NCBI GenBank assembly: GCA_047611865.1 | Contig: JBLFWS010000001.1 | Location: 1-64,000, forward strand | Length of the DNA: 64,000 nucleotides | Direction of reading: 5' to 3' | DNA from: Chlamydiales bacterium | GTDB taxonomy: Bacteria > Chlamydiota > Chlamydiia > Chlamydiales > JBDQID01 | Part shown: positions 16,389-42,639 of the stretch, one piece after another | How positions within the stretch are numbered: position 1 is the first letter of the stretch | Layout of the letters: the number at the start of each line of letters is the position of its first letter | Translations under genes and position numbers: made by a program | Notes under the pieces: generated by a model | What the model was told of the DNA's origin: nothing | What the model saw: only the letters and a program-made list of their open reading frames with translations | The model's database searches: none

Positions 16389-17570
16389 CTAGCTTACAGC
16401 TTGAGTTACCGCTTTGATCCGATCAATAATTACGGGTAATTCTTCAATAAGTTGTTTTGCCCTACAATCCCAAGTATACTCACGCATAACTTTTTCACGA
16501 CCCTGCTCTACAAAATGTCTTCTTCGCTCATCATTTCCTACGAATTCATTAACTGTCCCATTAATCTTGTCACTATCCCAGTGTTGATATATCAACACTC
16601 CTTCCGCTTCCTGAAATTGACTACTGTTAAAAAGAGTGTCATCGGTAACCACTGCCGCTCCTGCAGCCAGACCGTAAAAAAGCCTCTCGTGTGAACCGTA
16701 TTTAAAAAAAGGAACACTGCTAAGTAATACTTTACTCTCTCTCATAATTTCCATAGTCTTTTCAAAAGGAACAGAATCATGGATTGTCACGTTCTTCTGA
16801 CCCTCAAGATAGTACTCCCAACCTCTTGCCCCTATGGTTCTTCCAAAGACATGGACCGGGGCATCTTTTATAGACTTTATCATATCAGCACGCCCCTTAC
16901 CCTTAATGTAGCGTTCTACTTCTCGGCAAAGCTGGGTTACTTCTACCTCATCGGGAGTAATTTTAGCGCTTTCTAGTTCTTTTAGAAGGGTCAGAAAATA
17001 AGGGCTTCTATCATCGGAAAAAACCTTGTCTACGGTTGTACGAATCACCTCAATCACTTGAGGAGAATATGCCTCCTCCCACTTGGAATTTATCTCCTCA
17101 TAATCAATACAAGTCCCCAACATCGTGACATCATATTTTTTCTCACTTTCTTCCCCTCGCTGAAAATCTGCTTCTACACCATGTGGAAAGAAAAAGGCGT
17201 TCTCAAAGCCTCCGGACTTTAGGAATTCACTGAAAAACATTTCTACACAAGTGATAATAGAGTAAGGGCTCTGCAAAAGGTAGAGGGTCTCCAAAGAAGC
17301 ATCCACCAAGAGATTAACATGGGGTGTTTTTAGATGATCGCAGAACAGACGTCCATCATGAAGTGGTAAAATCGGGTTAAATGTACATGTGCAATCAGGC
17401 TTTTCTTTTTTTACAATTTCCATTACTGAAAATACATCTTGCTCTTCGAAATCAAAGATTTCACATTGTACTCCGTTATTTACCATAGCCTTACACAACT
17501 GATTAGTAAAATGCTGTGTCGCCCCATACTGTCCATCAGGCATAAAAAAAATCATCTTTTTCAACGTCAT
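16389..17570 (-). CDS. CgeB/YkvP-like glycosyltransferase (Glyco_trans_1_2)
   Basis: FFPHGVE, KYDVTMLGT, GSHERLFYGLAAGAAVVT, GREKVMREYTWDCRA. Confidence 0.8.
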   Translation of the reverse strand: MTLKKMIFFMPDGQYGATQHFTNQLCKAMVNNGVQCEIFDFEEQDVFSVMEIVKKEKPDCTCTFNPILPLHDGRLFCDHLKTPHVNLLVDASLETLYLLQSPYSIITCVEMFFSEFLKSGGFENAFFFPHGVEADFQRGEESEKKYDVTMLGTCIDYEEINSKWEEAYSPQVIEVIRTTVDKVFSDDRSPYFLTLLKELESAKITPDEVEVTQLCREVERYIKGKGRADMIKSIKDAPVHVFGRTIGARGWEYYLEGQKNVTIHDSVPFEKTMEIMRESKVLLSSVPFFKYGSHERLFYGLAAGAAVVTDDTLFNSSQFQEAEGVLIYQHWDSDKINGTVNEFVGNDERRRHFVEQGREKVMREYTWDCRAKQLIEELPVIIDRIKAVTQAVS

Positions 17571-22819: not shown

Positions 22820-25249
22820 CTAATCTTCACTCTGCAGCGAAGAGCGGAACTTCCTAATAAATTCAGTACAGAGTCTTTCATATGAAAAACGCTCTTGAAC
22901 AAGCTTTTTGAGGTTACGTCCTATTTCTTCCCTCAGCTCTGGTCTTTCCAGGTAAAACTGACATTTCTCTAAAAGCTCGCTTGGGGAAGAAAAATAGTCA
23001 AAGTGCTCCCCTGGAATAAATTCTTTTGCCATTTTACACCAAGCCAGTTCTTCCGGGACATGGAATACCAGAAAAAATGCCTCACACATTCCTCCCTCCA
23101 ATATCCGTGGGTGATGTTCTGACCAAGGGTTTATTGATAAATTAATTTTGTTTTTAAGAAAACGCGACTGGTATTCTTCTCGGGTTTCTGCATGCCCCAA
23201 GCAGTGTTGTTTCAAATGGGAGAAACCCTCCCAGTTCTTCCCGGTAACACCCAGTGTATACTTCTCATGATGGAGCAGGTCTATATAATAATAACTAAGC
23301 TGAGTGTGGTAAAAGGAGAGTAGAGATTCCTGTTGCACCCTTTTTTTTCCCCAAGAAAGAACTTCCTCAACAGCTATTGCCCCTTGTCCCCTGACAGTAT
23401 AAAAAATCTTGTTTTCAAAAAAATCTGCTACAGGCTTTTCTTTCTCTTCGTCAAACCCTGGAAAATCCCTAAGATGCTTGTCTTTATCCATGGTTTTAAC
23501 AAAACCAATATCTATTGATTTCTCTTCCGCTATACCTTTCAAGTCAATTACAGCATTCGTGGTTGGGATATGGTCACAGAGTAATTGCGAGGGCTTTGCT
23601 CCAGCATTGCAATATTGCTGTATAAACTCCTCGACCCAGAAGAAAATAATATCATGTCTGTTTATAGGTGTTCTTGTAAGAAGCTCAACACACTCAAAAT
23701 GAGGAGTAAGATCCTGTATGGAATAAATAGTTGGAAGATCTTTTCCAAAGTCAATTTCACCATCATATTTTAATGTATTTGGACTTCTAATAAACAAATC
23801 TGGCTTATAACGGTCTACGTCTATAATGGAGGCATACTCCAAATCAATTGAACCACCATGGCAAGGATCATGCACAAACACTTCACATCCCAGACTCTTG
23901 AAACTCTCAGCACAGCCATCTGTGTAGCGCTTTACAGCAACAGAATCACAAGCTCTCTCAAGATATACTCGTGGTAATTCTCCTTGAGCGATACTCTTCA
24001 AACGATTTTGAAATACATCACCCTTGTAATATTCTTTTATCGACTCCCTACCTTTCGAAAATATTTGTAGGTAGTCAATCACTCCCTGAAAAACGACTGC
24101 TGATACCTCTCTTGCTAAGGCACTCTTTTTATCACTCGTCACCACAGTCTTACACAAGTTTAGAGGAGACCTTGGATTTTCAAATTCTTTCTCCAAAAGA
24201 CTCTTCCATTCATCCACATACCAAATCTTTATAAGGCCTTCTTTGATCGCCTCTTGACACTCACTAATAGCAAGAAAATCCCTCACCAGATCGGGAAAAG
24301 AAAATATTATCAATATGCTATTTTTTTGAACTCTTTGCCTTTGAAAAAACTGAACAAGATATTCTTTTCCAGGAACAATATCAACAAACACCATAATGGG
24401 TAGATGGCTTTCATCAAGCGCCCCATCGTATAAATATTTCTCTCGACTCTCTGAGTCAGAACTCAGCAATGCATTCTGGCCACATTTACTTAGATAACTT
24501 ATGTTTTTCAAGCCTCCCCTTAAGTTCTCATAGTAATTTACCGCTGTCTTAATTCTGCTGTACTTCACAACATTGGGAAGCTTTTTCTCTGGATTTTTCT
24601 TCAAGGCACAATTAGACAAACTCTCTACAAAAGTAGGCGTATGAACTTCTGACCCCATAAATTCTAATATATCCGGAAGCCGTGCTGGGATATCTTCATA
24701 CTCAACCTGGAAATATTTATGGGCGTGAAGTTGTAATTTAGTGAAAAACTGATCGTTCTTATACAAAGCCCCCAGTACGTCTGTACATTGTCTGGAAGAC
24801 AACTTAATTTCTTCACTTCTTGAATTATCCCGACTATCTCGAATTTTTTGAAGAATCGGAGGAAGTTTTCTCTTCTCATCCCTTTCTATTACATGCCCTT
24901 GATTCTGGATAATGGACTTCAGAATATCCCGATAGTTCCTGTGCACATGGATAAGAAGAATGCTCGGATCGATAATATTTTTTAAATTCGAGTAATCTTC
25001 ATCAGAATAGACCTGAGGATCTAACAACATTTTCGACCCAACGATTGAACCTTTCGAATACGTCCCTTTTAAATATTCCGAAAGAGCAAAAGTGCCCTTA
25101 TCCATTTTTACGCGGAAACACTCCTCATCGCTTCTTGACATCCATCTAAGCTCTTCATCACACACAATACCTTCGCTACCTGCAAGAATTGATTGCAGCC
25201 ATGTAGCTCCACAACGAACATTTCCTACTACAAGAAATTTAGTAATCAC
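22820..25249 (-). CDS. sulfotransferase-glycosyltransferase fusion, paralog 4
   Basis: N-terminal GNVRCGATWL (5'-PSB-like loop), IHVHRNYRDILKS (3'-PB-like), YEDI; C-terminal KINLSINP..HPRILEGG, GEHFDYF..PSELLEK..YL..PELREEIG; GTG start overlaps the upstream stop. Confidence 0.75.
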   Translation of the reverse strand: MITKFLVVGNVRCGATWLQSILAGSEGIVCDEELRWMSRSDEECFRVKMDKGTFALSEYLKGTYSKGSIVGSKMLLDPQVYSDEDYSNLKNIIDPSILLIHVHRNYRDILKSIIQNQGHVIERDEKRKLPPILQKIRDSRDNSRSEEIKLSSRQCTDVLGALYKNDQFFTKLQLHAHKYFQVEYEDIPARLPDILEFMGSEVHTPTFVESLSNCALKKNPEKKLPNVVKYSRIKTAVNYYENLRGGLKNISYLSKCGQNALLSSDSESREKYLYDGALDESHLPIMVFVDIVPGKEYLVQFFQRQRVQKNSILIIFSFPDLVRDFLAISECQEAIKEGLIKIWYVDEWKSLLEKEFENPRSPLNLCKTVVTSDKKSALAREVSAVVFQGVIDYLQIFSKGRESIKEYYKGDVFQNRLKSIAQGELPRVYLERACDSVAVKRYTDGCAESFKSLGCEVFVHDPCHGGSIDLEYASIIDVDRYKPDLFIRSPNTLKYDGEIDFGKDLPTIYSIQDLTPHFECVELLTRTPINRHDIIFFWVEEFIQQYCNAGAKPSQLLCDHIPTTNAVIDLKGIAEEKSIDIGFVKTMDKDKHLRDFPGFDEEKEKPVADFFENKIFYTVRGQGAIAVEEVLSWGKKRVQQESLLSFYHTQLSYYYIDLLHHEKYTLGVTGKNWEGFSHLKQHCLGHAETREEYQSRFLKNKINLSINPWSEHHPRILEGGMCEAFFLVFHVPEELAWCKMAKEFIPGEHFDYFSSPSELLEKCQFYLERPELREEIGRNLKKLVQERFSYERLCTEFIRKFRSSLQSED

Positions 25250-27684
25250 GACTCATTTCCTTTTTCTATCGATGATCTAAAACGTATCAAAAACTCCGAA
25301 CATAGCTTTGTATAGGAAAAATGTTCTTGAACCAATTTTCTAAGATTTTGGCCTATCTGTTTACGTAATTTTTCATTATCCAAATAATAACAACATTTTT
25401 CTTTTAACTCCTCCGGCGTAGAGAAATAATCGAAATGTGTTCCTGGAATCATTTCATCAGGCATTCTACAAGAGGTGAGCTCTTCCGGAACTTTGAATAC
25501 AAGAAAGAATGCACCACAAACCCCTCCTTCAAAAACCCTTGGATGAAACCGATCCCAAGGGTTTATAGACAAATTAATCTTATTGCTTAAGAAACGCATT
25601 TGATAGTCTTCCCTACTTTCTGCGTGCCCCAAACAATATCTTTTTAACCCTGGGATGAGGTCCCAATTGGCCCCTGACAAACCTAATTCAAAGCCTTCTT
25701 TCCTAAGAAACTCAATATATTTCAAACTAAATTTGCTATGATAATAAGAAAGAAGAGTCTCTTCCTGAATTCTGTCCAGTCCCCATGCTGCTACCCGCAT
25801 GGGGTCAATGGCCCCTTCAGTTTCAACTGTGTCCAAAATTTTCTCTTCTAAACGATCAGCTTGTTTTCTCTCCTCATCTGTTTCCGCCTCAAAAAGATCT
25901 CTTACATGCCTATATGGGAATAGGGTTTTAACATATGCCACTTCAACATTTTCATTAGCTTTAAAAAGTTCAACGTCAAACTTTGCCTCCTCTGCCGGAA
26001 TAAAACCCTTAAGCAGTTGTGACTCTTTTGCACCTGCATCAATGTATATCTTATGAAAGTCTGGGAGCAGGAAAAACAAGATGTCGTGCTTAGAAAGAGG
26101 TGATTTCTCTAAATACCTGGCGCAATCGAGATGTGGTCCTCGATCTTGAAGAGAATATAGAGAGGGCACTCCTTGATAAAATACCATGTCTTGATATCCC
26201 TTAACAATATTCGGGCTACGAACTATCAAGTCTGGCTTAAAGCTCGCCACCTCTATTTCAGAAGAGAACACTAAATCGATTGCCCCTCCGGAACAAGGCT
26301 TATGAACAAATACCTCATGACCGAGCTTCCTAAAAGACTCTGCACAATTATCTGTAAAACGTTTTACAGCTATTGATGTACAGGCCCTCTCAAAATACAA
26401 TCTGAGTTTCTCTCCTTTCTGAATATTTTTCAGCCGCTTTTGAAAAGCCGTACTTTGATAATACTCTTCGATAATTTTTCGCGCTGCTGAATGACGTTTT
26501 ACAAAATTTTCCCGTCCCTGAAGCAAAGCCGCACGAATATAACTCTCTAAAGGATGATTTCTCTGCACTACGATATTATTGCAGCATGGGAGGGGAGAAC
26601 GGAGGTTTTCCAACTCTTGAATAAATTTCTTATCCCATTCTGATATATGCCAAAGCTTAATATTCCCCTGAGAGATAAGCTTTTTGTAACTACTATGGAG
26701 TAATATCTCCTTCACAACTGATATATTAGAGAATATTATGACAATACTTACCGGGTCCTTCCCGAGGACATCTTCTTTAAAAAATTTCTCTAAAAACTCA
26801 TGACTCGGAAGAATATCGACAAAAACACTTACGGGGAAGTGGTTGTTTCCTAAAGGTTGTTGGTAAACTTTAACTTCTGAGTTGAAAATTTCTGTATCCC
26901 CTAGAGAACTCCTTGCCTCCTCGCTAATATAATTTATATTCAAAAGAAAGGTTCGAAGGCCTTCGTATGCCCTTAGAAAATTCTGTGTCTTTGAATACTT
27001 CAATACACTCGGTTCTTTCATTTTAGGTAGTTTTTTCAGCTCACTAGCTGCAATTAGCTTCGGCGCCTGCGTTGCATAGGTTTCGACCCCTATAAATTTA
27101 AGTATATTTGGCAATTGCTCCTGAATCTCTTCATATTCTATAGCTAAATACTTACTCCTGTCCTTTTGAATCAAAGAAATCCTGTTGTCATTCTGATACA
27201 ATGCTGCAGTGATCGCTTCACACTCTTTTACAGAAAACTTTTGCTCCCTCTTAGGAGAGTCCTTTTGCAATTCTAAAATCCCCTGCAAAACATTGGAGGG
27301 TTGAGCAGGAAGATGCTTGGAAATCCTGTATCCCTGATTCTGTATTATAGATTTCAGTATATCTTTGTAATTCCTCTGTATATGTACAATACGTGTATCT
27401 GAATCCACTGACCCCAAGAATTTTGACAAATCTTCATCGTCATACCTTTGGGGATCAAGAAGAAGTTTGGAGCCTACAATCTCTGCGAATGCTTCCTTTG
27501 TGCCTAGGTATTCAGAAACGTCAAAAGACCCCTGTTCTATATGTACTCGATGTTTTGAAGAGGAAGCACTAGATCGCCATCTCAATTCTTCACCGCAAGA
27601 AATTTGATCACTTTTGGAAAGCAGGCTTTGTAACCAAGTAGCTCCACAGCGAACGTTGCCCACTATCAGAAATTTAACTTTCAC
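25246..27684 (-). CDS. sulfotransferase-glycosyltransferase fusion, paralog 3
   Basis: Same motifs (GNVRCGATWL, HIQRNYKDILKS, KINLSINPWDRFHPRVFEGG); GTG start. Confidence 0.75.
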   Translation of the reverse strand: MKVKFLIVGNVRCGATWLQSLLSKSDQISCGEELRWRSSASSSKHRVHIEQGSFDVSEYLGTKEAFAEIVGSKLLLDPQRYDDEDLSKFLGSVDSDTRIVHIQRNYKDILKSIIQNQGYRISKHLPAQPSNVLQGILELQKDSPKREQKFSVKECEAITAALYQNDNRISLIQKDRSKYLAIEYEEIQEQLPNILKFIGVETYATQAPKLIAASELKKLPKMKEPSVLKYSKTQNFLRAYEGLRTFLLNINYISEEARSSLGDTEIFNSEVKVYQQPLGNNHFPVSVFVDILPSHEFLEKFFKEDVLGKDPVSIVIIFSNISVVKEILLHSSYKKLISQGNIKLWHISEWDKKFIQELENLRSPLPCCNNIVVQRNHPLESYIRAALLQGRENFVKRHSAARKIIEEYYQSTAFQKRLKNIQKGEKLRLYFERACTSIAVKRFTDNCAESFRKLGHEVFVHKPCSGGAIDLVFSSEIEVASFKPDLIVRSPNIVKGYQDMVFYQGVPSLYSLQDRGPHLDCARYLEKSPLSKHDILFFLLPDFHKIYIDAGAKESQLLKGFIPAEEAKFDVELFKANENVEVAYVKTLFPYRHVRDLFEAETDEERKQADRLEEKILDTVETEGAIDPMRVAAWGLDRIQEETLLSYYHSKFSLKYIEFLRKEGFELGLSGANWDLIPGLKRYCLGHAESREDYQMRFLSNKINLSINPWDRFHPRVFEGGVCGAFFLVFKVPEELTSCRMPDEMIPGTHFDYFSTPEELKEKCCYYLDNEKLRKQIGQNLRKLVQEHFSYTKLCSEFLIRFRSSIEKGNES

Positions 27685-30118
27685 AATAGCTTCCTTTCTC
27701 GATCAATGTTTTAAAACGATTCAAAAACTCAGAGCATAATCTTTTATAAGAAAACCTCTTTTTAACTAATTCTCTTAAATTGTTTCCTATTTTACTCCTC
27801 AGATCCGGCCTTGCTAAGTAATATCTGCTTTTTTCCAGCAATTCTTCTGAAGAAGAAAAGTAGTCAAAATGCTCTCCTGAAACAAGTTCTTCGGCCATCC
27901 TTGAATCCACAACTTCATCAGCAACCTTATAGACCAAAAAGAATGCGCCACAACTCCCCCCCTCTAAAATACGTAAATGGTGTTCGCTCCATGGGTTAAT
28001 AGAAAGGTTAATTTTATTACGAAGAAACCTTTGGTGATATTCTTCTCTATTCTCTGAATGCCCTAAACTATATTTCTTAAGACTGGGAATCTTGTCCCAA
28101 TTCTTTCCTGTTAAACCCAAGCTATACTTTTCTCTGTTGAGTAATTTTATAAAGTATGCACTAAGTTGCCTGTGATAATAAGAAAGCAGCTTCTCTTGCT
28201 CCTCCCGATCTCTCCCCCATGACATAACTTCTGAGCGAAGTGTTCCTTTGGCTGAACGCACTCGCTGTAAAATCAATTCCTCAAGCTCTTTCACCTCTGA
28301 TATATCTTTTTCATCCTTGCACACAATAATTTCAGTAAGCGATAAACTTGCACCCATTGTTTTTACATAACCGATATCAAACATCTCATCTTCACTAGGC
28401 ACGGAAATTTCTTTTTTCGGCATCCTTGTAGGCAAATAGTCACAAATCATCTGTAATTCGGGTACTCCTGAAACTAAATACGCTTCTTTAAAACCTGGTA
28501 AGAGAAAATAAAGCAGGTCATGCTTATTCAAAGGCTCTTGTGCCAAATTGTGAGCTGCGTCGAAATGAGGACCTACATCCTGAATTGAGTAAAGAGTGGG
28601 TACCTGACTAGAAGAGTTTATTGCCCGAAAACCTTTCGTAAAGTTAGGACTTCTGACAAATAAGTCTGGCTTCTCTCGGGACAACTCCAATTCCGTAGCA
28701 TACATATAATCCACCATTCCATAAGAGCAGGGCTCATGCACATAAACCTCGCAGCCCATCTCTTTAAAACACCCTGCACAATAGTCTGTAAAACGCTTAA
28801 CTGAAACTGAGACACAAGTTCTCTCAAGATATATCTTCGGTTTTGTTCCCTTTTGTATTGCATCCAGTCTACTTTGAAATTCCGCACTCTGATAGTAAGC
28901 TTCAATACCCCTTCTGGATTCTTCTAATTCATTTAAGTAAGCTACTCGCGTCTGATAGATAGTTGTCCGCACTTTATCGGCAAACGGATGTCCTCCCTGC
29001 GCAATTACTGTATTACAACTGTGTAGGGGAGAACGTAAATTAGATATCTCTCCTTCAAGATTTTCTTCCCATTCCAAAGAATACCAAAGCTTAAGCGTCC
29101 CCTTTTCGATAAAGCGACAGAACCTGTCATCTAAAAGAATCCCTTTAACGACAGCCATAAAAGAAAAAATCACCAGAATATTTAAAGGATACTTCTCTTT
29201 TTCCTGTTGTTCAATAAAACCTTCAAGATACTTTATTGATGGAGAAGTATCCACAAAGACGATTATAGGACCGTGACTCTCTAAGAGAGGAGCATCATAT
29301 ACCGGCACTTCTGTCTTGTCATTATGAGTTCGCAAAAGCCCCGCACAAGCTACTTCGCTAAGATAATTCATATTCTTCAACAATAGACGCATTTCTTCAT
29401 AAGACTGAAGAAGTTTACGCGTTTTGCTATATCGCAAAATATTTGGAACTTCCTTAGAGGGGAGCTTATTCAATCCACACTTCATCTGAAGGAAATAGAA
29501 TGGAGGGGGCGAATATCCCAAGCCAATAAACTTAACTATGTCAGCAAACTTCTTGGAAATTTCACTATAATCTACTTGAAAATAGCGTTGTTTATCTTTT
29601 TGTAATCCAGATAAAAATCGATCATTTGCAAATAAAGCTGATATAATTTCCTCGCACTCCCTCGAAGAAAGTTTTTTCTCCAAGTTCTTATGAATTGCCA
29701 AGGTCTCTGCAATACCCTTTAAGACATTGCTAATTTCTTCACCAGGTCTTGCACTAACGGAATAACCCTGATTTTGTATTATCGATTTTAAGATCTCTTC
29801 ATAAGGGCGCTGTATGTGAATTATATTCATACCTGATTCCATAGCTTCCGAGAAAAGCTTCAATTCTCCATCGAAATATTTTCGAGGATCCATTAATAGC
29901 TTCGACCCAACGATTTCAGCTTCACCTGTCTCCTTTTCAAGATATTTAGAAAGATTGAACTCCCCGTCATCTATGCATATCTGATAGCTCAAGGAAGCCA
30001 CAGAAGATGCCCACCTAAGCTCATCATCGCACCGAACTTCCCTCAAAGTATTAAGCATCGCCTGTAGCCAAGTTGCTCCACAACGAATATTGCCTACTAT
30101 AAGAAACTTTTTACTCAC
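27674..30118 (-). CDS. sulfotransferase-glycosyltransferase fusion, paralog 2
   Basis: Same motifs (GNIRCGATWL, HIQRPYEEILKS, KINLSINPWSEHHLRILEGG); GTG start. Confidence 0.75.
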   Translation of the reverse strand: MSKKFLIVGNIRCGATWLQAMLNTLREVRCDDELRWASSVASLSYQICIDDGEFNLSKYLEKETGEAEIVGSKLLMDPRKYFDGELKLFSEAMESGMNIIHIQRPYEEILKSIIQNQGYSVSARPGEEISNVLKGIAETLAIHKNLEKKLSSRECEEIISALFANDRFLSGLQKDKQRYFQVDYSEISKKFADIVKFIGLGYSPPPFYFLQMKCGLNKLPSKEVPNILRYSKTRKLLQSYEEMRLLLKNMNYLSEVACAGLLRTHNDKTEVPVYDAPLLESHGPIIVFVDTSPSIKYLEGFIEQQEKEKYPLNILVIFSFMAVVKGILLDDRFCRFIEKGTLKLWYSLEWEENLEGEISNLRSPLHSCNTVIAQGGHPFADKVRTTIYQTRVAYLNELEESRRGIEAYYQSAEFQSRLDAIQKGTKPKIYLERTCVSVSVKRFTDYCAGCFKEMGCEVYVHEPCSYGMVDYMYATELELSREKPDLFVRSPNFTKGFRAINSSSQVPTLYSIQDVGPHFDAAHNLAQEPLNKHDLLYFLLPGFKEAYLVSGVPELQMICDYLPTRMPKKEISVPSEDEMFDIGYVKTMGASLSLTEIIVCKDEKDISEVKELEELILQRVRSAKGTLRSEVMSWGRDREEQEKLLSYYHRQLSAYFIKLLNREKYSLGLTGKNWDKIPSLKKYSLGHSENREEYHQRFLRNKINLSINPWSEHHLRILEGGSCGAFFLVYKVADEVVDSRMAEELVSGEHFDYFSSSEELLEKSRYYLARPDLRSKIGNNLRELVKKRFSYKRLCSEFLNRFKTLIEKGSYCES

Positions 30119-32549
30119 ACAACTCTCCCAAGTCTATTGATGATCTAAAACGGGCAAGAAATTCCGAACAAAGCCTCTTATAAGAAAACCTTTCTTGAAC
30201 TACAGCTCTTAGGTTATTTCCTATCTTTTCCCTTAAGTCGGGTCTGGAAAGATAGTATTTGCACTTATCCACAAGTTCTTCAGGAGAAGCAAAAAAATCA
30301 AAATGCTTTCCAGGCTTCAAGTCTTTTGAAATATTGCACCAGGATATCTTTTCAGGAACTCTGTAAACCAAGAAAAATGCTCCACAGATCCCCCCCTCCA
30401 ATATTCGAGGGTGGTGTTGGGCAAAGGGGTTTATCGATAAATTAATCTTGTTGTTCAAGAAACGCAATTGATAGCTTTCCCTACTCTCAACATGCCCCAA
30501 AGTAAACTTTTTGAGAGCAGGGAATTGCTCCCAATTTCTCCCAGTAAGTCCTAATTCAAAACCCTCTGTCTGTAAATGCTCCATATACATCAAGCTCATA
30601 CATGAGTGGTAATAGGAGTGAAGAGATTCTTTTTGCTTTCTCGTTTTCCCCCATGACATCACTTCCAATAAGTCTATAGCTCCCTTTTGACGAACCATTA
30701 AGGCAATTTTTTTCTCCAACTGCTCAGCCAACAGCTTGTCTTCTTCAGTTCTACAGTCGAAGATTTCTTTAAGGCACAGTCTTTCTGGCATCGTTTTGAC
30801 GTATCCGACATCAATCCGAGCTTCAGCCGCATACTCATCCAAGTCGAACGACGACATTTCTGTTGGGATATAGTCACAAATCAGTTGAGAGCTTAAAGCT
30901 CCCGCACTCAGATAAACTTCTTTAAATCTTGGCAAAATAAAAAAAAGTAAGTCTTTTTTTCTTAGAGGGAAGTGTCTCAAAAATTGTGTGCAATCCAAAT
31001 GAGGCTGTGTATCTTGCATAGAATATAAAATTGGGACCTCTGTAGAATTAAGGCCAATATTTTCATAACCCTCTATTATATTTGGACTCCTAACAACAAG
31101 GTCTGGAAGGAATGCTTCCATTTCCAACTCCATAGCATATGTATAATCTATACATCCGCCTTTACACGGATCATGGATAAATACTTCACAGCCTATCTCC
31201 CGAAAGCTCTTTGCACAATGATTCGAAAAGCGCTTTATCGCTATAGAAGAACAGGCTCTTTCAATATAAATTCTTGGAGAAGCTCCTTTCTTTATTTGAT
31301 TCAAACGCTCTTTAAATTCTCTACTCAAATAATAACGATTGAAAAATCCTCTAGACTTTTCCACCCTCAAAATATAGCTGCTACATGCCCTACTCAAAAG
31401 CTTCTGAATTCTTTTTGCAACGGGGTGCCCCTCAATAGAAATTATACTTTCACAATGCTGAAAAGGTGAGCGTATATTTACAAGTTCTTTTCCCAACTGC
31501 TCTTCCCAATCCATGATATGCCAAATCTTAAGAGATCCCTCTTTTAGAAGATGAACATATCTACTGTCAAAGAGGATCTCCCTCACAACTTCTACAGCAG
31601 AAAATATTATCAAAAGTGTTCTGGGATCTTTTCCAATAGTCCTTTGAAAAAAAAATTCCTCCAAAAAGTCTGACCCAGGAGTAAGATCCACAAAAACCGT
31701 TATAGGATAACAGCTTTTATCTACAGCTTGATTATAAACCAGTGCTGATCTCTCTAATAGCTCGCTTTGGAAAATCTTTTGACAAACTGTCTCACTAAGG
31801 TAGCTAGTGTTTTTAAGTAAAATCCTCAAACTCTCATATAGTTTTAGAACTGATTGTACTTTGCTATACTTTAATACATTTGGAATCCTTTTCTCAGGAA
31901 GCTTTCTGAAATCCGAATTCATTTTGATAGTAGTCACAGCCACATTGGAAACATGCAAACCCAGAAAACTCACCAAGTCATAAAGTCTTTCAGATATCTC
32001 TTCATATTCAACCTGGATGTAACACTCATCTCTCTCCTGGAAGCGATGGAAAAAACGATCATTCGCATACAATGCTTTCACGACCTCCCCACATTTCCCA
32101 GCAGGCATTACAACTTCACCCTGCGTCTGCTGCATTTGGGCATCTCTGATCCCCCGACTGAAGCAAGAAGCTCCTTCTGATAACGTGATTGAATAACCCT
32201 GATTTTGAATGATTGACCTGAGTATCTCTTTATAGGGTCTTTGGATGTGTATTATACGTACATCTTCTTCTACAGATTTATATATCTCTGCAAAATCATC
32301 CTCTTCATAAGCTTGAGGATCCAAAAGGAGCTTAGCACCCACTACATCTGCGTCTATTCGAGACTTTTCAAAATAACGATATAAACTAGAATCCCCATTC
32401 TTTATATTTTCACGATAAGCAAATTTAGGAGAATCCGAAAGCCATCGAAGTTCTAATGCACATTCAACACCGGGAACTCTCCCCAGTATTTCCTGTAACC
32501 AAGTTGCTCCACAACGCACATTCGAAACTATGAGAAACTTTGTATCCAA
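30111..32549 (-). CDS. sulfotransferase-glycosyltransferase fusion, paralog 1
   Basis: Same motifs (SNVRCGATWL, HIQRPYKEILRS, KINLSINPFAQHHPRILEGG); TTG start with AGGAG RBS. Confidence 0.75.
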   Translation of the reverse strand: MDTKFLIVSNVRCGATWLQEILGRVPGVECALELRWLSDSPKFAYRENIKNGDSSLYRYFEKSRIDADVVGAKLLLDPQAYEEDDFAEIYKSVEEDVRIIHIQRPYKEILRSIIQNQGYSITLSEGASCFSRGIRDAQMQQTQGEVVMPAGKCGEVVKALYANDRFFHRFQERDECYIQVEYEEISERLYDLVSFLGLHVSNVAVTTIKMNSDFRKLPEKRIPNVLKYSKVQSVLKLYESLRILLKNTSYLSETVCQKIFQSELLERSALVYNQAVDKSCYPITVFVDLTPGSDFLEEFFFQRTIGKDPRTLLIIFSAVEVVREILFDSRYVHLLKEGSLKIWHIMDWEEQLGKELVNIRSPFQHCESIISIEGHPVAKRIQKLLSRACSSYILRVEKSRGFFNRYYLSREFKERLNQIKKGASPRIYIERACSSIAIKRFSNHCAKSFREIGCEVFIHDPCKGGCIDYTYAMELEMEAFLPDLVVRSPNIIEGYENIGLNSTEVPILYSMQDTQPHLDCTQFLRHFPLRKKDLLFFILPRFKEVYLSAGALSSQLICDYIPTEMSSFDLDEYAAEARIDVGYVKTMPERLCLKEIFDCRTEEDKLLAEQLEKKIALMVRQKGAIDLLEVMSWGKTRKQKESLHSYYHSCMSLMYMEHLQTEGFELGLTGRNWEQFPALKKFTLGHVESRESYQLRFLNNKINLSINPFAQHHPRILEGGICGAFFLVYRVPEKISWCNISKDLKPGKHFDFFASPEELVDKCKYYLSRPDLREKIGNNLRAVVQERFSYKRLCSEFLARFRSSIDLGELCE

Positions 32550-32650: not shown

Positions 32651-33715
32651 TTAACACATTTTGAGCATACATCTACCTGTAACTTCACCGGCTTTCATTT
32701 GACGAATAGCAAGATTGATATCGTTGAAATCAAAATGGTGAGTAATTAAGCCATCCAGTTGTAATTTCCCGGCATTAACAAGATTTATATAACGAGGTAT
32801 GTCTTTTTCTGGTTTTGCCTCTCCACCATGTGATCCAGAGAGTATTTTCCCAAAATGTACTGGAAGTGTGTAAAGAGAAGCTTTCTGACCATGCTTTGGT
32901 ACTCCCACAAGAATTGTACGACCTTGAGGTTTTGTCAACTCATATGCCATTTCAATCAAGTCCACATTACCTGTATTTTCTACTATAACATCCGCCCCAT
33001 CAGAACCGAGGATATTCATTATTTCCTTTTTGACATCGGTATTTTTGGCGTTCAATGTGTGTGTAGCTCCAAAACTTCTAGCTAATTCAAGTTTCTTATC
33101 ATACAGATCCACCGCAATAATTGGATGAGCTGAAACCATAGAGGCCCCTTGAATAACATTAAGACCGACACCTCCAGCCCCTAATGCAACAATGGATTCT
33201 CCGATTTTAACTTGCGCATCATTCGTAATAACTCCCAAGCCTGTTAACACTGCACAACCCAACAGAGCTGCATGTTGAGAGTCAAAATCCTTAGGTATAG
33301 AAGTAAGTCGATTTTCAGATATTACAGCGTACTCATTAAAAGAAGTGATGGCACCAGCATTTAAACATCTCCCCTTCCATTTATACTTAGGCATCTGCGC
33401 ATCAATCCCACTGCCTTTCTTCCAGTGTAAGACTACATGATCTCCCTTCATAACGGTTTGAACTCCAGGACCAATTTCAAGTACCTCTCCAGAACCTTCG
33501 TGCCCAAGAAGGTGAGGTAAGTATTTATCTTCTCCTTTTGCTCCGTCTATTTCCCCAATCTGCGATCCACAAATACTGCTATAAAGAACTTTGACCAATA
33601 CTTGCCCATAAGTTAATGTCGAAGGTAACTGAATAGTATCAACTACAAGATCCTGATGTAATTCTGCCAAAATAGCAGCTTTCATCTCTTTGATGATAAT
33701 TTGCTTATTTGACAT
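32651..33715 (-). CDS. zinc-dependent alcohol dehydrogenase (MDR family)
   Basis: SICGSQ, GHEGSG, LLGCAVLTG, GAGGVG; lacks the four-Cys structural Zn loop. Confidence 0.9.
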   Translation of the reverse strand: MSNKQIIIKEMKAAILAELHQDLVVDTIQLPSTLTYGQVLVKVLYSSICGSQIGEIDGAKGEDKYLPHLLGHEGSGEVLEIGPGVQTVMKGDHVVLHWKKGSGIDAQMPKYKWKGRCLNAGAITSFNEYAVISENRLTSIPKDFDSQHAALLGCAVLTGLGVITNDAQVKIGESIVALGAGGVGLNVIQGASMVSAHPIIAVDLYDKKLELARSFGATHTLNAKNTDVKKEIMNILGSDGADVIVENTGNVDLIEMAYELTKPQGRTILVGVPKHGQKASLYTLPVHFGKILSGSHGGEAKPEKDIPRYINLVNAGKLQLDGLITHHFDFNDINLAIRQMKAGEVTGRCMLKMC

Positions 33716-34775
33716 AACTGTCCTTACCTAGAATATTCAGATCGCTCTGAATGGCGTTAAAAAGAAGCCGGGACTTTGCTAACTGCTCCCTTTTCCGAAC
33801 CTTATCAGCCACTTTCCCTTGTGCAAAACGACGGCGGGATTCTCCTTCTGGGAGAAAATCATTTAGTACAATAGTGCACCACTTAAGCCTGTAAACAGGA
33901 AGTAAAAGCCTGGCTCTTTGAAGAAGCTTTTCTTTTGTATCAGGAAAGCAGTCTGCTATTGCAGTAGAGAACTTTTTATAATACTTTTCCGACACTGGAA
34001 CACTTACTTGACAGAAAAAATCACAAATCGTCTTTGCTGGGTCATCCCATCCCGCATATTCAAAATCAAAAAACTTTATCTCGTCATCTGCGGTTAAAAG
34101 AGCATTATGAAATCCAAAGTCCGAAGGCGAAAGGCACCATTCTGAAGTCTCCAATTTCCGGTCTAAGTCTATTTCACAAACCCCCGCAGCTTTTTGTACC
34201 CTTTGCTTAATGACCTCCCATAAATTAGGAATCTCCTTTCGCAAGTGAATAGATACCTCTGATTTCGAGTCACGCTCGTCCACACTTTGTAACCTTTCCA
34301 CACGCTTATCTACACAATGAAAATGCTCATTCATAGTAAAACATGCCTCTGCTGCCCTAGAGAGATGTTGCCCATTTTGAAAAACTCCACCAAAGTTGAG
34401 ATCTTTAAAAAACTTTATGGCTTCATCAATTGCATAATCATTTACTTGTTCTTCCTTAAAAGGACGACCATCCACAAACTCGTATATACAAATATCTCGC
34501 TTAGTATCTTGATCGATCGGTCGAGGAATACTCCGTATTCCTCGATCCCAAGCAAATTGAGCAAAAGAAAACTCTGAGAATTGCCGGTTTCGAGAATCAC
34601 TCGCATGTTTATAGAAGCGTTTGATAATTACATTATCTTCCTTACCCTCTACTTTAAACAGCTTGTTATTTTTCCCTCCATCGATACCAATCAATCGATA
34701 TTCATCCGATTGTGACCAACCTGCTCTCACAAGAAGGTCATCTACATCTTTCTGAAATGAGTTATGCTTTTTCAT
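33705..34775 (-). CDS. aminoglycoside phosphotransferase/choline kinase-like protein
   Basis: GGKNNKLF, IIKRF, SPSDFGFHNAL, FFDFEYAGWDDP; ATG at 34775 overlaps the upstream stop (ATGA). Confidence 0.8.
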   Translation of the reverse strand: MKKHNSFQKDVDDLLVRAGWSQSDEYRLIGIDGGKNNKLFKVEGKEDNVIIKRFYKHASDSRNRQFSEFSFAQFAWDRGIRSIPRPIDQDTKRDICIYEFVDGRPFKEEQVNDYAIDEAIKFFKDLNFGGVFQNGQHLSRAAEACFTMNEHFHCVDKRVERLQSVDERDSKSEVSIHLRKEIPNLWEVIKQRVQKAAGVCEIDLDRKLETSEWCLSPSDFGFHNALLTADDEIKFFDFEYAGWDDPAKTICDFFCQVSVPVSEKYYKKFSTAIADCFPDTKEKLLQRARLLLPVYRLKWCTIVLNDFLPEGESRRRFAQGKVADKVRKREQLAKSRLLFNAIQSDLNILGKDSYVK

Positions 34776-35389
34776 GTTTTTAATAGCCGAAAGAGGCTCT
34801 CCTGAATGTCTTGCCACGACGATAGTCGCTGGAACCTTTCGTCAGTAACCCTGGGATCTCCTGGGACAAAATTAATACGTTCCACGCCCTCTGGAAAACT
34901 CGGGTCACCTAAAAACTCGGGAAGATCGTCTATAAAATGAGTGCATTGTAAAGTCTTAATACGCTCTATTTTTTTTTCTTTCGTAAGTTCAAAATATACT
35001 TTATTTTGGGTAAGGCCAATACCTTTTGGATCATAAAATCCTTGTACTCCTAACCATTCTTCCGCTGCCTGATGAAGGTCATATTGTTTACCTAGATAAG
35101 GACGCTGGGTCCTGTGACTGACAATATATACCTCTATATCTCTGTTGTGGCATTCTCGGAAAAAATTTACAACCCCAGGAAAAGGCTTAGCTTCAACCAT
35201 CCTTTTACCATAAATATATCCTTGCATCTCTGTCCAAGTATCTTCTTTATTTCTTTCTCTTAAGAAATCTCGGACCTCTGATTTACAAGCTGGAAATGAT
35301 GGTGGAATTAGGTTTTGCTCCAATGCCACTGTGTGAAAAAGTTGATCGTAGCAGACAATCGTATTGTCGAAGTCGACACCAATTAACAT
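34772..35389 (-). CDS. HAD-superfamily phosphatase
   Basis: IGVDFDNTI motif I, IVSHRT motif II, HFIDD motif IV. Confidence 0.85.
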   Translation of the reverse strand: MLIGVDFDNTIVCYDQLFHTVALEQNLIPPSFPACKSEVRDFLRERNKEDTWTEMQGYIYGKRMVEAKPFPGVVNFFRECHNRDIEVYIVSHRTQRPYLGKQYDLHQAAEEWLGVQGFYDPKGIGLTQNKVYFELTKEKKIERIKTLQCTHFIDDLPEFLGDPSFPEGVERINFVPGDPRVTDERFQRLSSWQDIQESLFRLLKT

Positions 35390-36333
35390 GGTATGTGTTT
35401 CCTTGCGTTATCAATCTGATACAGGTTAAGTATTTTCTGTAAAATATCTTCAACAGAAAGAGAAAAGTACTTCCTGGCATAATTTTGTCCTCCCGCATGG
35501 TGACAAAATTCATCCCTTGTTCCCAGCCGGAGTAACCTCGCTTTTCTTACTGGTTGATCTACAAGCCATTCCGCTACTGCAGAACCAAAGCCTCCGATGA
35601 GACTATGTTCTTCTAGAGTCACAACCAGAGGGTATTGTTCAAAAACTTCCGTTAGAATCTCAATGTCAAGCGGCTTTACAGTGTGGCAACTTAAGACCCT
35701 CGTAGAAATCCCTCCCGCAGCCAGCCTATCTCCTACTTCGGCTGCTAAAGGTAAAATATTTCCTGTTGCTAGAAGACAGACGTCATCCCCCTCACGAATA
35801 CTTATCGCCTTTCCTAAAGTAAACTCTACATTCTGCTTATGAATAAGAGGCTCCCCTTTTTTCCCCAAGCGAATGTACACCGGCCCCTTTAACTTCAAAG
35901 CTTCTCTAAGAGAATGACGAACCTCTATTGCATCCCCAGGACAAATCACTGTCATATTTGGCAAAGCCCGCATTAGAGCAATATCTTCACAGGAATGATG
36001 TGTGGCTCCAAGCCCTGCATAAGACAATCCAGCTCCAACTCCAACAATGACTGCTGGCAAGTTATGATAACACAGATCTACACGAATCTGCTCAAGACAG
36101 CGAGTCGTAGCAAATGGCGTTATCGTATAGGTTATGGGGTGTAAGCCAGAAAGAGCCATTCCTGCAGCGACACCTGTCATATTAGCTTCCGCAACTCCAC
36201 AGTTGTAGAAGCGATTGGGGAATTTTTTTTTGTAGTCATCAAAAAGTCTGTTACCAATATCTCCAGACAATAAAACGACCTTATCATTTTCTGAAGCAAT
36301 TGCAGTAAGCTCTGAGGCAAATGAATTTCTCAT
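35383..36333 (-). CDS. transketolase-like, C-terminal (pyrimidine-binding) subunit
   Basis: RFYNCGVAEANM, EQIRVD, GATHHS.ED, PVYIRL, TLEEH..IGGFGS. Confidence 0.9.
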   Translation of the reverse strand: MRNSFASELTAIASENDKVVLLSGDIGNRLFDDYKKKFPNRFYNCGVAEANMTGVAAGMALSGLHPITYTITPFATTRCLEQIRVDLCYHNLPAVIVGVGAGLSYAGLGATHHSCEDIALMRALPNMTVICPGDAIEVRHSLREALKLKGPVYIRLGKKGEPLIHKQNVEFTLGKAISIREGDDVCLLATGNILPLAAEVGDRLAAGGISTRVLSCHTVKPLDIEILTEVFEQYPLVVTLEEHSLIGGFGSAVAEWLVDQPVRKARLLRLGTRDEFCHHAGGQNYARKYFSLSVEDILQKILNLYQIDNARKHIPC

Positions 36334-36335
36334 AT

Positions 36336-37178
36336 TTACACCAATCCCAGCTCTTTACGAGCAGCAATAATTTCATCCTCATTCGGAATACGATAGTGCC
36401 AATTATTATCGTCCTCCATAAAAGATACCCCTTTGCCTTTGATCGTGTGAGCTATTATAGCTGTCGGCTTCCCTTTCTCTATCGCATGAGGGTTTACAGC
36501 CTTAAGGATCTCTTCTATGCTATGCCCATCAACTTCCCTGGTACTCCAGCCAAATGCTTCCCATTTGTCCTTTAGAGGGTCCAATGCTAAAGTAGCATTA
36601 CTACGACCCGTTGCTTGCCATTTATTGTAGTCGACGATTGCAGTAATATTATCAAGATTATGTGCAGGAGCCATCATTGCAGCCTCCCAACTAGAGCCTT
36701 CGTTGCACTCACCATCGCTCATCACAACAAATACTTTAGTTTTTCTATTAAGAATTTTTGCAGCCATCGCTTTGCCGACACCAATAGACAATCCATGACC
36801 TAAGGAACCTGTTGCGGCCTCTATTCCTGGAACACAATAAGGCCCAGGATGCTCTGCAAGGGAACTTCCTGGTTTATTATACGTTGCGAGTATTTCTTCT
36901 GAAAAAAAGCCCCTTTCGCAAAGTGTCACGTATAATGCCAACGCTGCATGACCTTTGCTAAGGATGAGTCTGTCACGTTCAGGGGAATTTGGCTTCTTGG
37001 GGTCAATCTGAAGAACCCTCCAATACAAAGCTACAAGGATATCAATACATGATAACGAAGAACCCAGGTGGGGTGTTTTTGCCAAATGAGACATCTCAAT
37101 CGTCTTATACCTTACCTGTCTACAGATCTGATCAAGTTCCTTAATTCTTTCCTCTTTCATTGGTACCAAGCCCCACAT
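36336..37178 (-). CDS. transketolase-like, N-terminal (TPP-binding) subunit
   Basis: HLGSSLS, DRLILSKGHA, TGSLGHG, SDGECNEG..WEA, HTIKGKG. Confidence 0.9.
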   Translation of the reverse strand: MWGLVPMKEERIKELDQICRQVRYKTIEMSHLAKTPHLGSSLSCIDILVALYWRVLQIDPKKPNSPERDRLILSKGHAALALYVTLCERGFFSEEILATYNKPGSSLAEHPGPYCVPGIEAATGSLGHGLSIGVGKAMAAKILNRKTKVFVVMSDGECNEGSSWEAAMMAPAHNLDNITAIVDYNKWQATGRSNATLALDPLKDKWEAFGWSTREVDGHSIEEILKAVNPHAIEKGKPTAIIAHTIKGKGVSFMEDDNNWHYRIPNEDEIIAARKELGLV

Positions 37179-37193
37179 TTTCCCACATAGAAG

Positions 37194-37360
37194 TAGGTCG
37201 TGTATTAAAATTACGAAACACTGCTTTTGGAGCCTTTATCCACACTTTTGAATCGCACCCAACTCACCTACTTGTCTAAGTATGGAGAGTTGTGAGCGAT
37301 CCAAAATTATAAAAAAATGCCCTCAAAATCAGACATTCCCTAATTTTAATACACGACCTA
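37194..37360. mobile_element. 167-bp palindromic MITE-like element with TA ends
   Basis: Perfect 20-bp inverted ends TAGGTCGTGTATTAAAATTA / TAATTTTAATACACGACCTA; inner arms TTTTGAATCGCACCCAACTC / GAGTTGTGAGCGATCCAAAA. Confidence 0.8.
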
Positions 37361-37427
37361 GACCTTACATGCTATTGTCTAAATAGTTTTTTTTCAAGTC
37401 GGGGCTCTAGTTTTAAAATATCTAGAA

Positions 37428-38084
37428 TCACTCTGCGATAAACCATCCGTAGTCTCCGGTATAACCCACTACTCCAAAAAGCTTTTCCCAATCATCAACA
37501 TGTAATGCTGTTTCGGCTGTTAGCACCCACTTTCTCAGGTTTTCTTTCTCTTGATCATTTCTCCAAGCATCAACTGTAATATAACTTTTTCCACGTGAAA
37601 CGCGTTGAATTTCCTTCAAAGCATCCTTCAAAGGCTCAAGGTGCAGGTTATGAATTGTGGTCAAAGAAAGTACTAAATCAAAGCTATTATCCGCATACGG
37701 TAGTTTTTCTGCGCTGCACACTTCTAAGTGAGGCTTGACAGTTTCCATTGAACAATCAATGGCATATCGACTTACATCTATTCCTCTTACCGTACTTTTA
37801 GGCATACATTGTTTGAAGTCATGAAGAAGAAATCCTTTTGCACAACCGATATCGAGTATAGCCGCATCCTCGCTCAAGCCGTAATGCTCCTTCATCCGTT
37901 CAACCACCTGCACCCATCTGCCGTCGTAATGATAGCCTCCATAGCCATACAGACGGTCCCCATCAAAGAATTCTTTTCCGTATTGTTTTGCAACTTTGAT
38001 GACCTCATCCGTTTTTTCTCTTGCTCTTTTGTCATAGTCACGTTTTACAGCTGCTTGTTTATCAGCAAAATTTAATTCAGCCAT
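37428..38084 (-). CDS. class I SAM-dependent methyltransferase
   Basis: FFDGDRLYGYGGY, ILDIGCAKGFL, GIDVS, LPYADNSFDLV; start placed at ATG 38084 after GAGGAG. Confidence 0.85.
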   Translation of the reverse strand: MAELNFADKQAAVKRDYDKRAREKTDEVIKVAKQYGKEFFDGDRLYGYGGYHYDGRWVQVVERMKEHYGLSEDAAILDIGCAKGFLLHDFKQCMPKSTVRGIDVSRYAIDCSMETVKPHLEVCSAEKLPYADNSFDLVLSLTTIHNLHLEPLKDALKEIQRVSRGKSYITVDAWRNDQEKENLRKWVLTAETALHVDDWEKLFGVVGYTGDYGWFIAE

Positions 38085-38174
38085 CATCTCCTCATAATTT
38101 AATTTAGTATAGTCAACTATAAAAGCAGGTAAGATCGAACAAAGCTTCGATTTCTCCACTGAAAGACCAGAATC

Positions 38175-38384
38175 GGCGTTGTTGCATAACTTAATACGTT
38201 TACAATCATTTATTTAACCACCGAGAGCACAGAGAGATAGAAAAATGCATAAAGTCTCTCAGAATATGCTATCAACTCATCTGTGATTTTTTATTCTCTC
38301 TGTGCCCTCTGTGCCCTCTGTGGTATCGGTGGTAAAATGTTAATCATAAGCCTCTTGTATACGAATGTTTTATGCAACAACACC
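38175..38384. mobile_element. MITE copy 3 (210 bp), inverted near-copy of 14354-14563
   Basis: GGCGTTGTTGCATAA ... TTATGCAACAACACC; flanks ACCAGAATC / ACTAGAATC (9-bp TSD, 1 mismatch). Confidence 0.9.
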
Positions 38385-38391
38385 ACTAGAA

Positions 38392-39964: not shown

Positions 39965-39976
39965 AATTTGTCTCCT

Positions 39977-40975: not shown

Positions 40976-41011
40976 ATCACGACCTTAATAATTTCAAAGT
41001 TACAAAAACCT

Positions 41012-42007: not shown

Positions 42008-42036
42008 TTCACAGGCCCTTCAAGCTACGTTTACCT

Positions 42037-42633: not shown

Positions 42634-42639
42634 CTACAA

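Follow-up and report, generated by a model that had tools for sequence, protein, structure and literature searches.

The stretch of DNA analyzed here, referred to below as the window, comprises the first 64,000 nucleotides (64 kb) of contig JBLFWS010000001.1 from the assembly (GCA_047611865.1) of a Chlamydiales bacterium. It carries an array of four collinear open reading frames (ORFs) on the minus strand, each of which is predicted to encode a sulfotransferase fused to a glycosyltransferase. Paralog 1 (30111..32549, 812 amino acids) starts with TTG and is followed by paralog 2 (27674..30118, 814 amino acids), paralog 3 (25246..27684, 812 amino acids), and paralog 4 (22820..25249, 809 amino acids), all three of which start with GTG. 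Consecutive genes overlap by 8, 11, and 4 bp, respectively, and the four are tightly coupled in translation. The stop codon of paralog 4 is located 6 bp from the end of a convergent NYN_YacP gene. The ORF list of the window agrees exactly with the lengths, start codons, and overlaps given in a preliminary description made from the letters of the DNA alone, and the three motifs quoted there are present and invariant in all four paralogs: N-x-R-C-G-A-T-W-L (residues 10–18), H-x-x-R-x-Y-x-x-I-L-x-S-I-I-Q-N-Q-G (residues 101–118), and, in the C-terminal part, K-I-N-L-S-I-N-P ... E-G-G ... H-F-D.

A Shine-Dalgarno-like sequence, GGAG or AAGGA, is positioned 7–10 nt upstream of each of the four starts, and at most six open codons precede the start. 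Residues K4, F5, and L6 are invariant among the four paralogs and form the first strand of the N-terminal fold; the conservation of this strand supports the non-ATG starts. In both the public gene call and the ESM Atlas record, paralog 3 begins at codon 8 (GTG; window 27664–27684, minus strand) and has 805 amino acids. A start at that codon would cut the conserved first β-strand of the sulfotransferase fold.

The copies are well diverged but intact, as had been noted before, with paralogs 2–4 showing 44–46% protein identity to paralog 1, a level at which synonymous sites are saturated. By domain, the mean pairwise identity of the four proteins is 41% in the sulfotransferase, 38% in the middle domain, and 45% and 56% in the N- and C-terminal halves of the glycosyltransferase, respectively. 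At the DNA level the array repeats with a period of 2431–2435 nt, and even the best stretches are just 60–79% alike, which shows that the copies arose long ago and rules out a recent duplication or gene conversion of the array. In a quick maximum-likelihood tree of the family, rooted at the midpoint only, the four paralogs form one clade together with a 77%-identical metagenomic ortholog of paralog 3 (P0006), with a Shimodaira–Hasegawa-like approximate likelihood ratio (SH-aLRT) support of 97, and this clade is sister to two further full-length metagenomic members. True hydrophobic segments are absent in the paralogs. The sole hydrophobic peak, at residues 311–330, corresponds to a buried strand, and the four fusion proteins are thus soluble and cytoplasmic.

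The N-terminal domain of paralog 3, the copy that was modeled, comprises residues 1–265 (26890..27684, minus strand). Judged by its motifs, its profile matches, and its predicted fold, it is a sulfotransferase of the type that depends on 3′-phosphoadenosine 5′-phosphosulfate (PAPS). The 5′-phosphosulfate (5′-PSB) loop is present as R12-C-G14-A-T16-W and aligns with the PSB loops of 4gox, SULT7A1, and Teg14, and the 3′-phosphate (3′-PB) pair, R104 and S112, eight residues apart, aligns with the R-N-P-x-D-x-x-x-S motif of the solved enzymes. E33, a candidate catalytic residue, occupies the position at which several sulfotransferases have a Glu as their catalytic base. In an alignment of 32 sequences of this domain, F5, G14, T16, E33, G71, R104, S112, and Y184 are invariant, while R12, W17, L18, K73, and K218 are nearly so.

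The Pfam family PF00685 (Sulfotransfer_1, cut-off 22 bits) is matched with 30.3 bits in paralog 3, the one paralog of the four that passes, and with 20.6, 14.2, and 20.4 bits in paralogs 1, 2, and 4, respectively. The identification of the domain as a sulfotransferase in the preliminary description therefore stands by motifs, profile, and fold, but its placement with Stf0 and Sulfotransfer_3 (PF13469) in particular is not supported, as PF13469 also stays below its cut-off in all four paralogs. An exhaustive profile search found stand-alone relatives of the domain, of ~260 amino acids, at E-values from 1e-43 to 1e-20. In scans of 15 stand-alone or short relatives, a sulfotransferase family appears at E ≤ 0.01 for 13 and PF00685 exceeds its cut-off for 5, and one stand-alone relative, from Desulfovibrio sp. 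JC010, carries the source name 'sulfotransferase domain-containing protein'. A profile built from the 32 sequences gave 49 distinct matches to the sequences of the PDB at E ≤ 10, and all 22 of those at E ≤ 0.01 are sulfotransferases. The alignments pair the PSB loop, the 3′-PB motif, and a third conserved region one by one with those of the olefin-synthase sulfotransferase domain, SULT7A1, and Teg14. When the profile was built from the four full-length proteins instead, the only PDB sequence matched was that of a designed Rossmann protein (E 0.6), by chance.

The model of this domain has a predicted local distance difference test score (pLDDT) of 88.5 and a predicted template modeling score (pTM) of 0.87. 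A non-sulfotransferase fold had been named beforehand as the result that would speak against the assignment; the top matches in Foldseek (E from 8.5e-6) and the 20 best rows in VIA-align (Z 13.6–9.4 against 48,161 chains) are all sulfotransferases. The best VIA-align rows include 4gox (Z 13.6, root-mean-square deviation (rmsd) 3.5, 191 residues aligned), TPST1 (Z 13.0), TPST2 (Z 12.9), NDST1 (Z 11.8), and Stf0 (Z 9.5), and P-loop kinases enter the ranking only from Z 9.0 down.

The domain that follows (residues 266–424 of paralog 3; 26413..26889, minus strand) is a four-stranded α/β unit with a long helix, seen in this family only. It measures ~160 residues rather than the ~200 first estimated. 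The same domain is also present, together with the transferase, in shorter relatives that have no sulfotransferase. A look-up of residues 268–426 in the ESM Atlas gave nothing usable, with a best feature score of 0.76 and unrelated families at TM 0.37–0.53.

The C-terminal part of paralog 3 (residues 425–812; 25249..26412, minus strand) includes both Rossmann halves of a GT-B glycosyltransferase, with PF13524 (Glyco_trans_1_2, CgeB-like) matched at residues 658–793. All four paralogs pass the cut-off of 25 bits for PF13524 (57.4, 56.6, 45.2, and 53.9 bits for paralogs 1–4, respectively), covering ~130–140 of the 144 profile positions. In the full-length AlphaFold2 model of paralog 3 (pLDDT 80.9, pTM 0.73), VIA-align matched residues 426–806 to the mannosyltransferase of M. 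hassiacum (7qsg_B, Z 18.6, rmsd 3.6, 275 aligned) and residues 427–807 to PimA (2gej, Z 17.6, 308 aligned), followed by BshA, PglA, and others at Z 15–17; Foldseek also matches GT-B enzymes. Since the whole GT-B fold is matched over residues 425–810, the transferase extends over ~390 residues, well beyond the 140-residue Pfam module, and the C-terminal part is, according to the model, a complete GT-B transferase, in agreement with the CgeB-type GT-B enzyme proposed earlier.

The residues of this transferase set it somewhat apart from its nearest solved folds. E719 is conserved (E or D in most members), whereas the position eight residues before it varies, with D in paralog 3 and A in paralog 1. 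The EX7E signature of the GT4 C-terminal domain is therefore incomplete, and we do not file these proteins as GT4, the GT4 enzymes being just the nearest solved folds. K586, R691, H714, R716, and E719 are conserved in the transferase domain and, by position only, are candidates for donor binding. In the 23 aligned family members, C435, H461, C464, and D470 are invariant throughout; they are located in the acceptor-side Rossmann half and may constitute a metal site or an acceptor-binding cluster. K586, H750, and K763 are likewise invariant in this alignment.

The family to which the four proteins belong is very rare. Of 8000 candidates scored in a word-based search of 5.8 billion clusters, 10 proteins were returned, four of them the window's own. 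The exhaustive profile search gave 1234 proteins with E ≤ 0.001, of which just 59 were at E ≤ 1e-30, and among the best 150 of the 1234 an end-to-end match to the profile was seen in four representatives, one of which stands for the copies of the window. At E ≤ 1e-20, 3 of 40 other relatives at the order level have members, as do 3 of the 300 genomes scored across the phylum, this genome included (one further genome was unscored). A scan of genome_contigs gave a single locus with a family relative, and neither of two scans of metagenome_contigs, one using the family alignment and one using P0010, gave any; cluster look-ups of family members gave only the name 'hypothetical protein'. The genome of the window contains three more complete paralogs, of 571, 550, and 466 amino acids, that have no sulfotransferase domain, as well as a fragment located where a contig ends. 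In the nearest sampled relative (G001), the homolog on contig C198 (225–2153) covers profile positions 168–808 with seven in-frame stops (two TGA, three TAG, and two TAA), and it is likely a pseudogene.

In an alignment of 23 long forms, an intact PSB loop, E33, R104, and S112 are all found in nine: the four paralogs described here and P0006, P0007, P0009, P0010, and P0014, with Ser-Ala in place of Ala-Thr in the loop of P0010. What remains in the other 14 is a G-N-x-x-x-G-like turn together with the I-H-x-x-R-x-Y strand and the L-Y-x-N-D helix; the basic residue and the Thr of the loop have been lost, along with 40–100 residues that include E33. These relationships read most simply as an ancestral fusion in which the sulfotransferase was disabled repeatedly, a direction suggested by the alignment that the quick tree does not settle. 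The presence of a remnant in 14 members indicates that the domain can persist without catalysis and may hold a second, structural role. Its strict conservation in nine members across 29–46% identity, on the other hand, argues that it works in this genome. Judged by its motifs, the family appears to fuse an active sulfotransferase to a GT-B transferase.

For both substrates that such enzymes would use, other genes of this genome offer a probable supply. The preliminary description had proposed a search of the genome for a PAPS supply, and one is found on contig C17, where a gene for a 568-residue PUA_2/ATP-sulfurylase/APS-kinase fusion (APS: adenosine 5′-phosphosulfate) is directly followed by an Inositol_P (CysQ-like) gene. 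The presence of this fusion next to a CysQ-like phosphatase indicates that PAPS is available. PAPS_reduct gives a single weak, partial match in the genome (24.9 bits, 56 of 175 positions), which suggests that PAPS is more likely a sulfate donor than an intermediate of assimilation. On contig C58 (1–3398), an APS_kinase domain is fused to PPDK_N, the ATP-binding domain of pyruvate phosphate dikinase, in an ORF of at least 658 amino acids that adjoins a 405-residue, weakly Sulfotransfer_3-like protein; this may represent a second, unusual module of sulfate activation.

The sugar would come from the sugar-nucleotide operon that, as had been recognized earlier, the array caps. Its 13 genes (32651..45330, minus strand) begin 101 nt upstream of the array on the same strand and, by their Pfam matches, form a heptose-type sugar-nucleotide operon. 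They encode an epimerase, a cytidylyltransferase–PfkB fusion (HldE-like, with the domains reversed), a SIS isomerase (GmhA-like), a second epimerase, a GDP-mannose-dehydratase-like protein, two methyltransferases, an RmlD-like reductase, a split transketolase, a 205-residue protein with a faint HAD match, a kinase, and a Zn-dehydrogenase. The best other matches of the SIS and HldE-like genes in the genome (tblastn) reach just 34% and 27% identity over partial lengths, and with no second close copy any use of heptose draws on this operon. The 101-nt gap contains no terminator-like site and one promoter-like site; the region as a whole has 29 promoter-like sites (27.8 expected) and 4 terminator-like sites (8.2 expected). 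In a genome from another chlamydial family (G028), a 738-residue homolog is situated between orthologs of six operon genes (HldE-like, SIS, epimerase, dehydratase-like, methyltransferase, and Zn-dehydrogenase; 47–66% identity) and a transketolase with two DegT aminotransferases, so two lineages show a linkage between the transferase family and this sugar pathway. The homolog in G040 is overlapped at its end by the gene for a methyltransferase that is a relative of one in the operon. The operon is likely the donor supply for the array.

The genome is also rich in genes for flagellins and for their putative glycosylation. There are 12 Flagellin_N matches, 11 of which pass the cut-off. On contig C21 (12472–21453), four tandem flagellins of 608, 608, 608, and 639 amino acids are found near fliW, a gene for a flagellin-like protein of 316 residues, flgK, flgN, flgI, flgH, and flgA. 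The correspondence between four large flagellins and four fusion enzymes is perhaps a coincidence. Further along the same contig are a 581-residue flagellin and, 2.4 kb from it, a Sulfotransfer_1-like gene (275 amino acids), as well as YjbH, GT2, polysaccharide deacetylase, and GT4 genes. Ten matches to MptE-like (PF01973), presumably the domain of Maf flagellin glycosyltransferases, occur in ORFs of 486–677 amino acids on contigs C120 (three), C42, C67, C110, C227, C228, C85, and C78, the one on C227 lying 2.3 kb from a flagellin. Ten is an unusually large set for one genome.

Contig C85 (1896–11658) carries, by Pfam matches, a candidate island for the glycosylation and sulfation of flagellin, with the gene order PF13524 transferase (402 amino acids), an ORF of 173 amino acids, Sulfotransfer_3 (292 amino acids, 85.7 bits), Glyco_transf_9, heptosyltransferase-like (314 amino acids), MptE-like (503 amino acids), and flagellin (266 amino acids), all within 7 kb, followed by a class-III aminotransferase and a gene of the inositol-monophosphatase family. 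Taken together, the flagellins, the Maf-like genes, and this island suggest that the organism very probably glycosylates its flagellins heavily, and that sulfation and heptose are plausibly part of its flagellin chemistry independently of the array. Among the 40 order-level relatives, the family is found in 3 of the 7 genomes that bear flagellin and in none of the 33 that lack it (one-sided exact test, p about 0.004); the genomes in question are kin and few, and this co-occurrence is thus a lead and not a proof. A Flagellin_N match next to a paralog on contig C10 was set aside, as it scores 21.1 bits, below the cut-off, and is unconfirmed; neither of the two small ORFs at that place matches any Pfam family at E ≤ 0.05.

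The reading that we favor, with somewhat better than even confidence, is that the array encodes four soluble enzymes, each joining a PAPS-dependent sulfotransferase to a GT-B glycosyltransferase through the family-specific middle domain, and that these enzymes make a sulfated glycan, which is the most likely product. The GT-B domain of each paralog would transfer one sugar, most simply the modified and possibly methylated heptose of the operon, from its nucleotide-sugar onto a growing glycan, and the attached sulfotransferase domain would then sulfate a hydroxyl of that glycan using PAPS. The addition and sulfation of one sugar by each paralog, as proposed before, is thus reasonable as a predicted activity, and the four diverged paralogs might serve four different linkages, positions, or acceptors. 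If the glycan belongs to the flagellum, Maf-type enzymes would start it, and its extension in the cytoplasm would precede export. The mimicry of host glycans that had also been suggested finds no support here.

Several observations weigh against parts of this reading. PF00685 remains below its cut-off in three of the four paralogs and PF13469 in all four; the first Glu of the canonical GT4 EX7E motif is not conserved; and the sulfotransferase domain is degenerate or truncated in 14 of the 23 family members. The operon-linked homolog of G028 itself has a degenerate sulfotransferase domain, and no APS kinase was found in that genome. The promoter-like site in the gap between operon and array says little about their co-transcription, as the number of such sites in the region equals chance. 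With regard to a flagellar acceptor, the nearest flagellar genes on the contig, fliE and two rod genes (flgC/flgB) at contig positions 73849–75162, are separated from the array by ~41 kb, the flagellin and Maf-like matches are all on other contigs, and the co-occurrence with flagellin rests on three related genomes that are not phylogenetically independent.

The decay of the sulfotransferase raises the question of whether this domain acts as an enzyme in the present genome at all. It could instead be a docking, oligomerization, or regulatory module for the glycosyltransferase, like the tetratricopeptide repeat (TPR) domain of FlmG, a flagellin glycosyltransferase which is reported to need its non-catalytic N-terminal domain for substrate binding (PMC7591256). 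The 14 members that retain a degenerate or shortened domain while keeping the rest of the protein would fit a scaffold that is useful without PAPS chemistry. We nevertheless regard a non-catalytic domain as unlikely here, because the PAPS-binding and candidate catalytic residues are all kept in the four paralogs and in five other members across the same 29–46% identity, and the genome supplies PAPS, with a PAP-phosphatase-like gene adjoining the synthase. If the domain is active, its acceptor might still be something other than a sugar, either a protein tyrosine, as for TPST and RaxST, or a small molecule, with the transferase domain acting separately. TPST1 and TPST2 lie within one Z unit of the best fold match, but the structural ranking does not discriminate, since the olefin-synthase sulfotransferase, NDST1, and 3-OST are found within 2.5 Z units, and the fusion to a glycosyltransferase that follows a sugar operon favors a carbohydrate. 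Such an acceptor is very improbable.

A sulfated glycan made by these enzymes could be attached to several acceptors. The many flagellins, the Maf-like genes, and the flagellin island with its own sulfotransferase make the O-glycan of the flagellar filament proteins the leading candidate, although we give it less than an even chance. The same chemistry might instead serve a sulfated, heptose-containing lipooligosaccharide core, an exopolysaccharide, or a glycan on some other protein that is secreted or surface-exposed in the extracellular stage. The lipopolysaccharide core is the classical destination of heptose pathways, and an operon on which all use of heptose depends could supply it here as well; the distance of the array from the flagellar genes, the exopolysaccharide-type gene YjbH on contig C21, and the presence of PimA-like GT4 enzymes with lipid acceptors among the best structural matches (Z 17.6) point in the same direction. 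Against such acceptors stand the solubility of the proteins, the restriction of the family to flagellated chlamydiae among the 40 relatives, and the 64-kb window itself, in which no flippase, polymerase, ABC exporter, or initiating phosphoglycosyl transferase was found. A lipooligosaccharide, a polysaccharide, or another protein is thus a possible acceptor, somewhat less likely than the flagellar one and, as a complete alternative, rather unlikely. Returning to the flagellar acceptor, we can tentatively speculate that, in a motile chlamydia, four bifunctional enzymes build a sulfated, methylated heptose oligosaccharide in the cytoplasm, and that this oligosaccharide coats either the flagellar filament or the cell surface in the extracellular stage, a picture that, taken as a whole, we hold to be doubtful.

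A few other features of the window and the genome may be mentioned. A PF13524 glycosyltransferase of 393 amino acids (16389..17570, minus strand; 62.3 bits), located 5 kb downstream of the array, is a distant relative of the transferase in the C85 flagellin island (tblastn E 3e-21, 23% identity) and possibly acts in the same pathway as the array. On contig C9 (2781–4236), an ORF of 543 amino acids with a PF13524 transferase adjoins a second homolog of the transketolase N-terminal half, 32% identical to that of the operon, so that the pairing of transketolase with a PF13524 transferase is repeated there. Divergent from the sugar operon lies a gene (45634–47388, plus strand) for a 584-residue fusion of a major facilitator superfamily (MFS) transporter with an acyltransferase, resembling lysophospholipid transporter/acyltransferases. 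The protein of 585 amino acids encoded at 47398–49155 (minus strand) has C-terminal ankyrin repeats and a match to Peptidase_C58 (YopT-like) of 22.3 bits, just below the 23-bit cut-off, and looks like a candidate for a secreted effector.

Sulfated glycans are rare in bacteria, and the four genes are a concrete candidate for making one, with both activities predicted in each polypeptide, a dedicated sugar operon beside them, and a PAPS supply in the genome. If the prediction is true, Chlamydiota would gain their first known sulfated glycoconjugate, and the proteins would be a new enzyme family that couples glycosyl transfer and sulfation in one polypeptide. If the acceptor is the flagellum, the chemistry known for glycosylated bacterial flagellins would be extended to sulfation, in a lineage for which genomes are the only source of knowledge on motility, and the glycan would be the first one with sulfate demonstrated on a bacterial flagellum. 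The family also displays the decay of an enzyme domain, and the vestigial sulfotransferase in most of its members offers a natural series for the study of the non-catalytic role of such a domain.

Full-text literature searches returned no paper on sulfated glycans in chlamydiae, as judged by title and abstract, and none on fused sulfotransferase–glycosyltransferase enzymes, and the only paper found in a full-text search for flagellin glycosylation, sulfate, and sulfotransferase concerns giant viruses. In one published case, the sulfotransferases are located in an O-chain region and not in the flagellar island. The main text of the first report of chlamydial flagellar genes (PMC5604735), as covered by a term search, contains none of the terms glycosyl-, sulfotransferase, flagellin, sulfat-, and heptose.

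Comparison with the solved sulfotransferases (the domain of the Synechococcus olefin synthase, 4gox; TPST1 and TPST2, 5wri and 3ap3; NDST1, 1nst; StaL; and Stf0) reveals the same fold in the N-terminal domain of the array proteins, at Z 13.6 to 9.5, with the PSB loop (R/K)-x-G-(S/T)-T, the Arg...Ser pair with its eight-residue spacing, and the Y-x-x-(L/I) region before the C-terminal helices in common. The array domain differs from them in its low identity (14–16%), in Pfam scores near or below the cut-off, and in the Cys that follows the Arg of the loop; it is also fused N-terminally to a glycosyltransferase, as none of these enzymes is. The GT4-type enzymes (7qsg; PimA, 2gej; BshA, 3mbo; and PglA, 8dqd) share the two-domain GT-B fold over residues 425–810 (Z 18.6–15.5, 275–308 aligned), but with 9–16% identity, with the first Glu of EX7E not conserved in the array, and with an invariant residue set that is the array's own. 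As for Maf-type systems of flagellin glycosylation, the genome is rich in Maf-like and flagellin genes, but the array is situated outside any flagellin locus.

CgeB of Bacillus subtilis, the namesake of PF13524, is described as a soluble putative UDP-sugar transferase that acts on Thr112 of the protein CgeA, its own activity being reported as weak (PMC13577073). It shares with all four paralogs the C-terminal Rossmann half represented by PF13524, over nearly its whole length, but it has 317 amino acids and neither the sulfotransferase nor the middle domain, a comparison made by description only. FlmG of Caulobacter crescentus is reported to be a soluble cytoplasmic flagellin O-glycosyltransferase composed of a TPR domain and a GT-B domain (PMC7591256), and thus resembles the array proteins in that a GT-B catalytic domain is preceded by an accessory N-terminal domain. 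The array proteins, again compared by description only, differ from FlmG in that they have no TPR repeats, their N-terminal domain is itself a predicted enzyme, and their genes do not adjoin a flagellin. CgeB and FlmG are the two studied enzymes nearest in kind to those of the array, and both are described as soluble protein O-glycosyltransferases.

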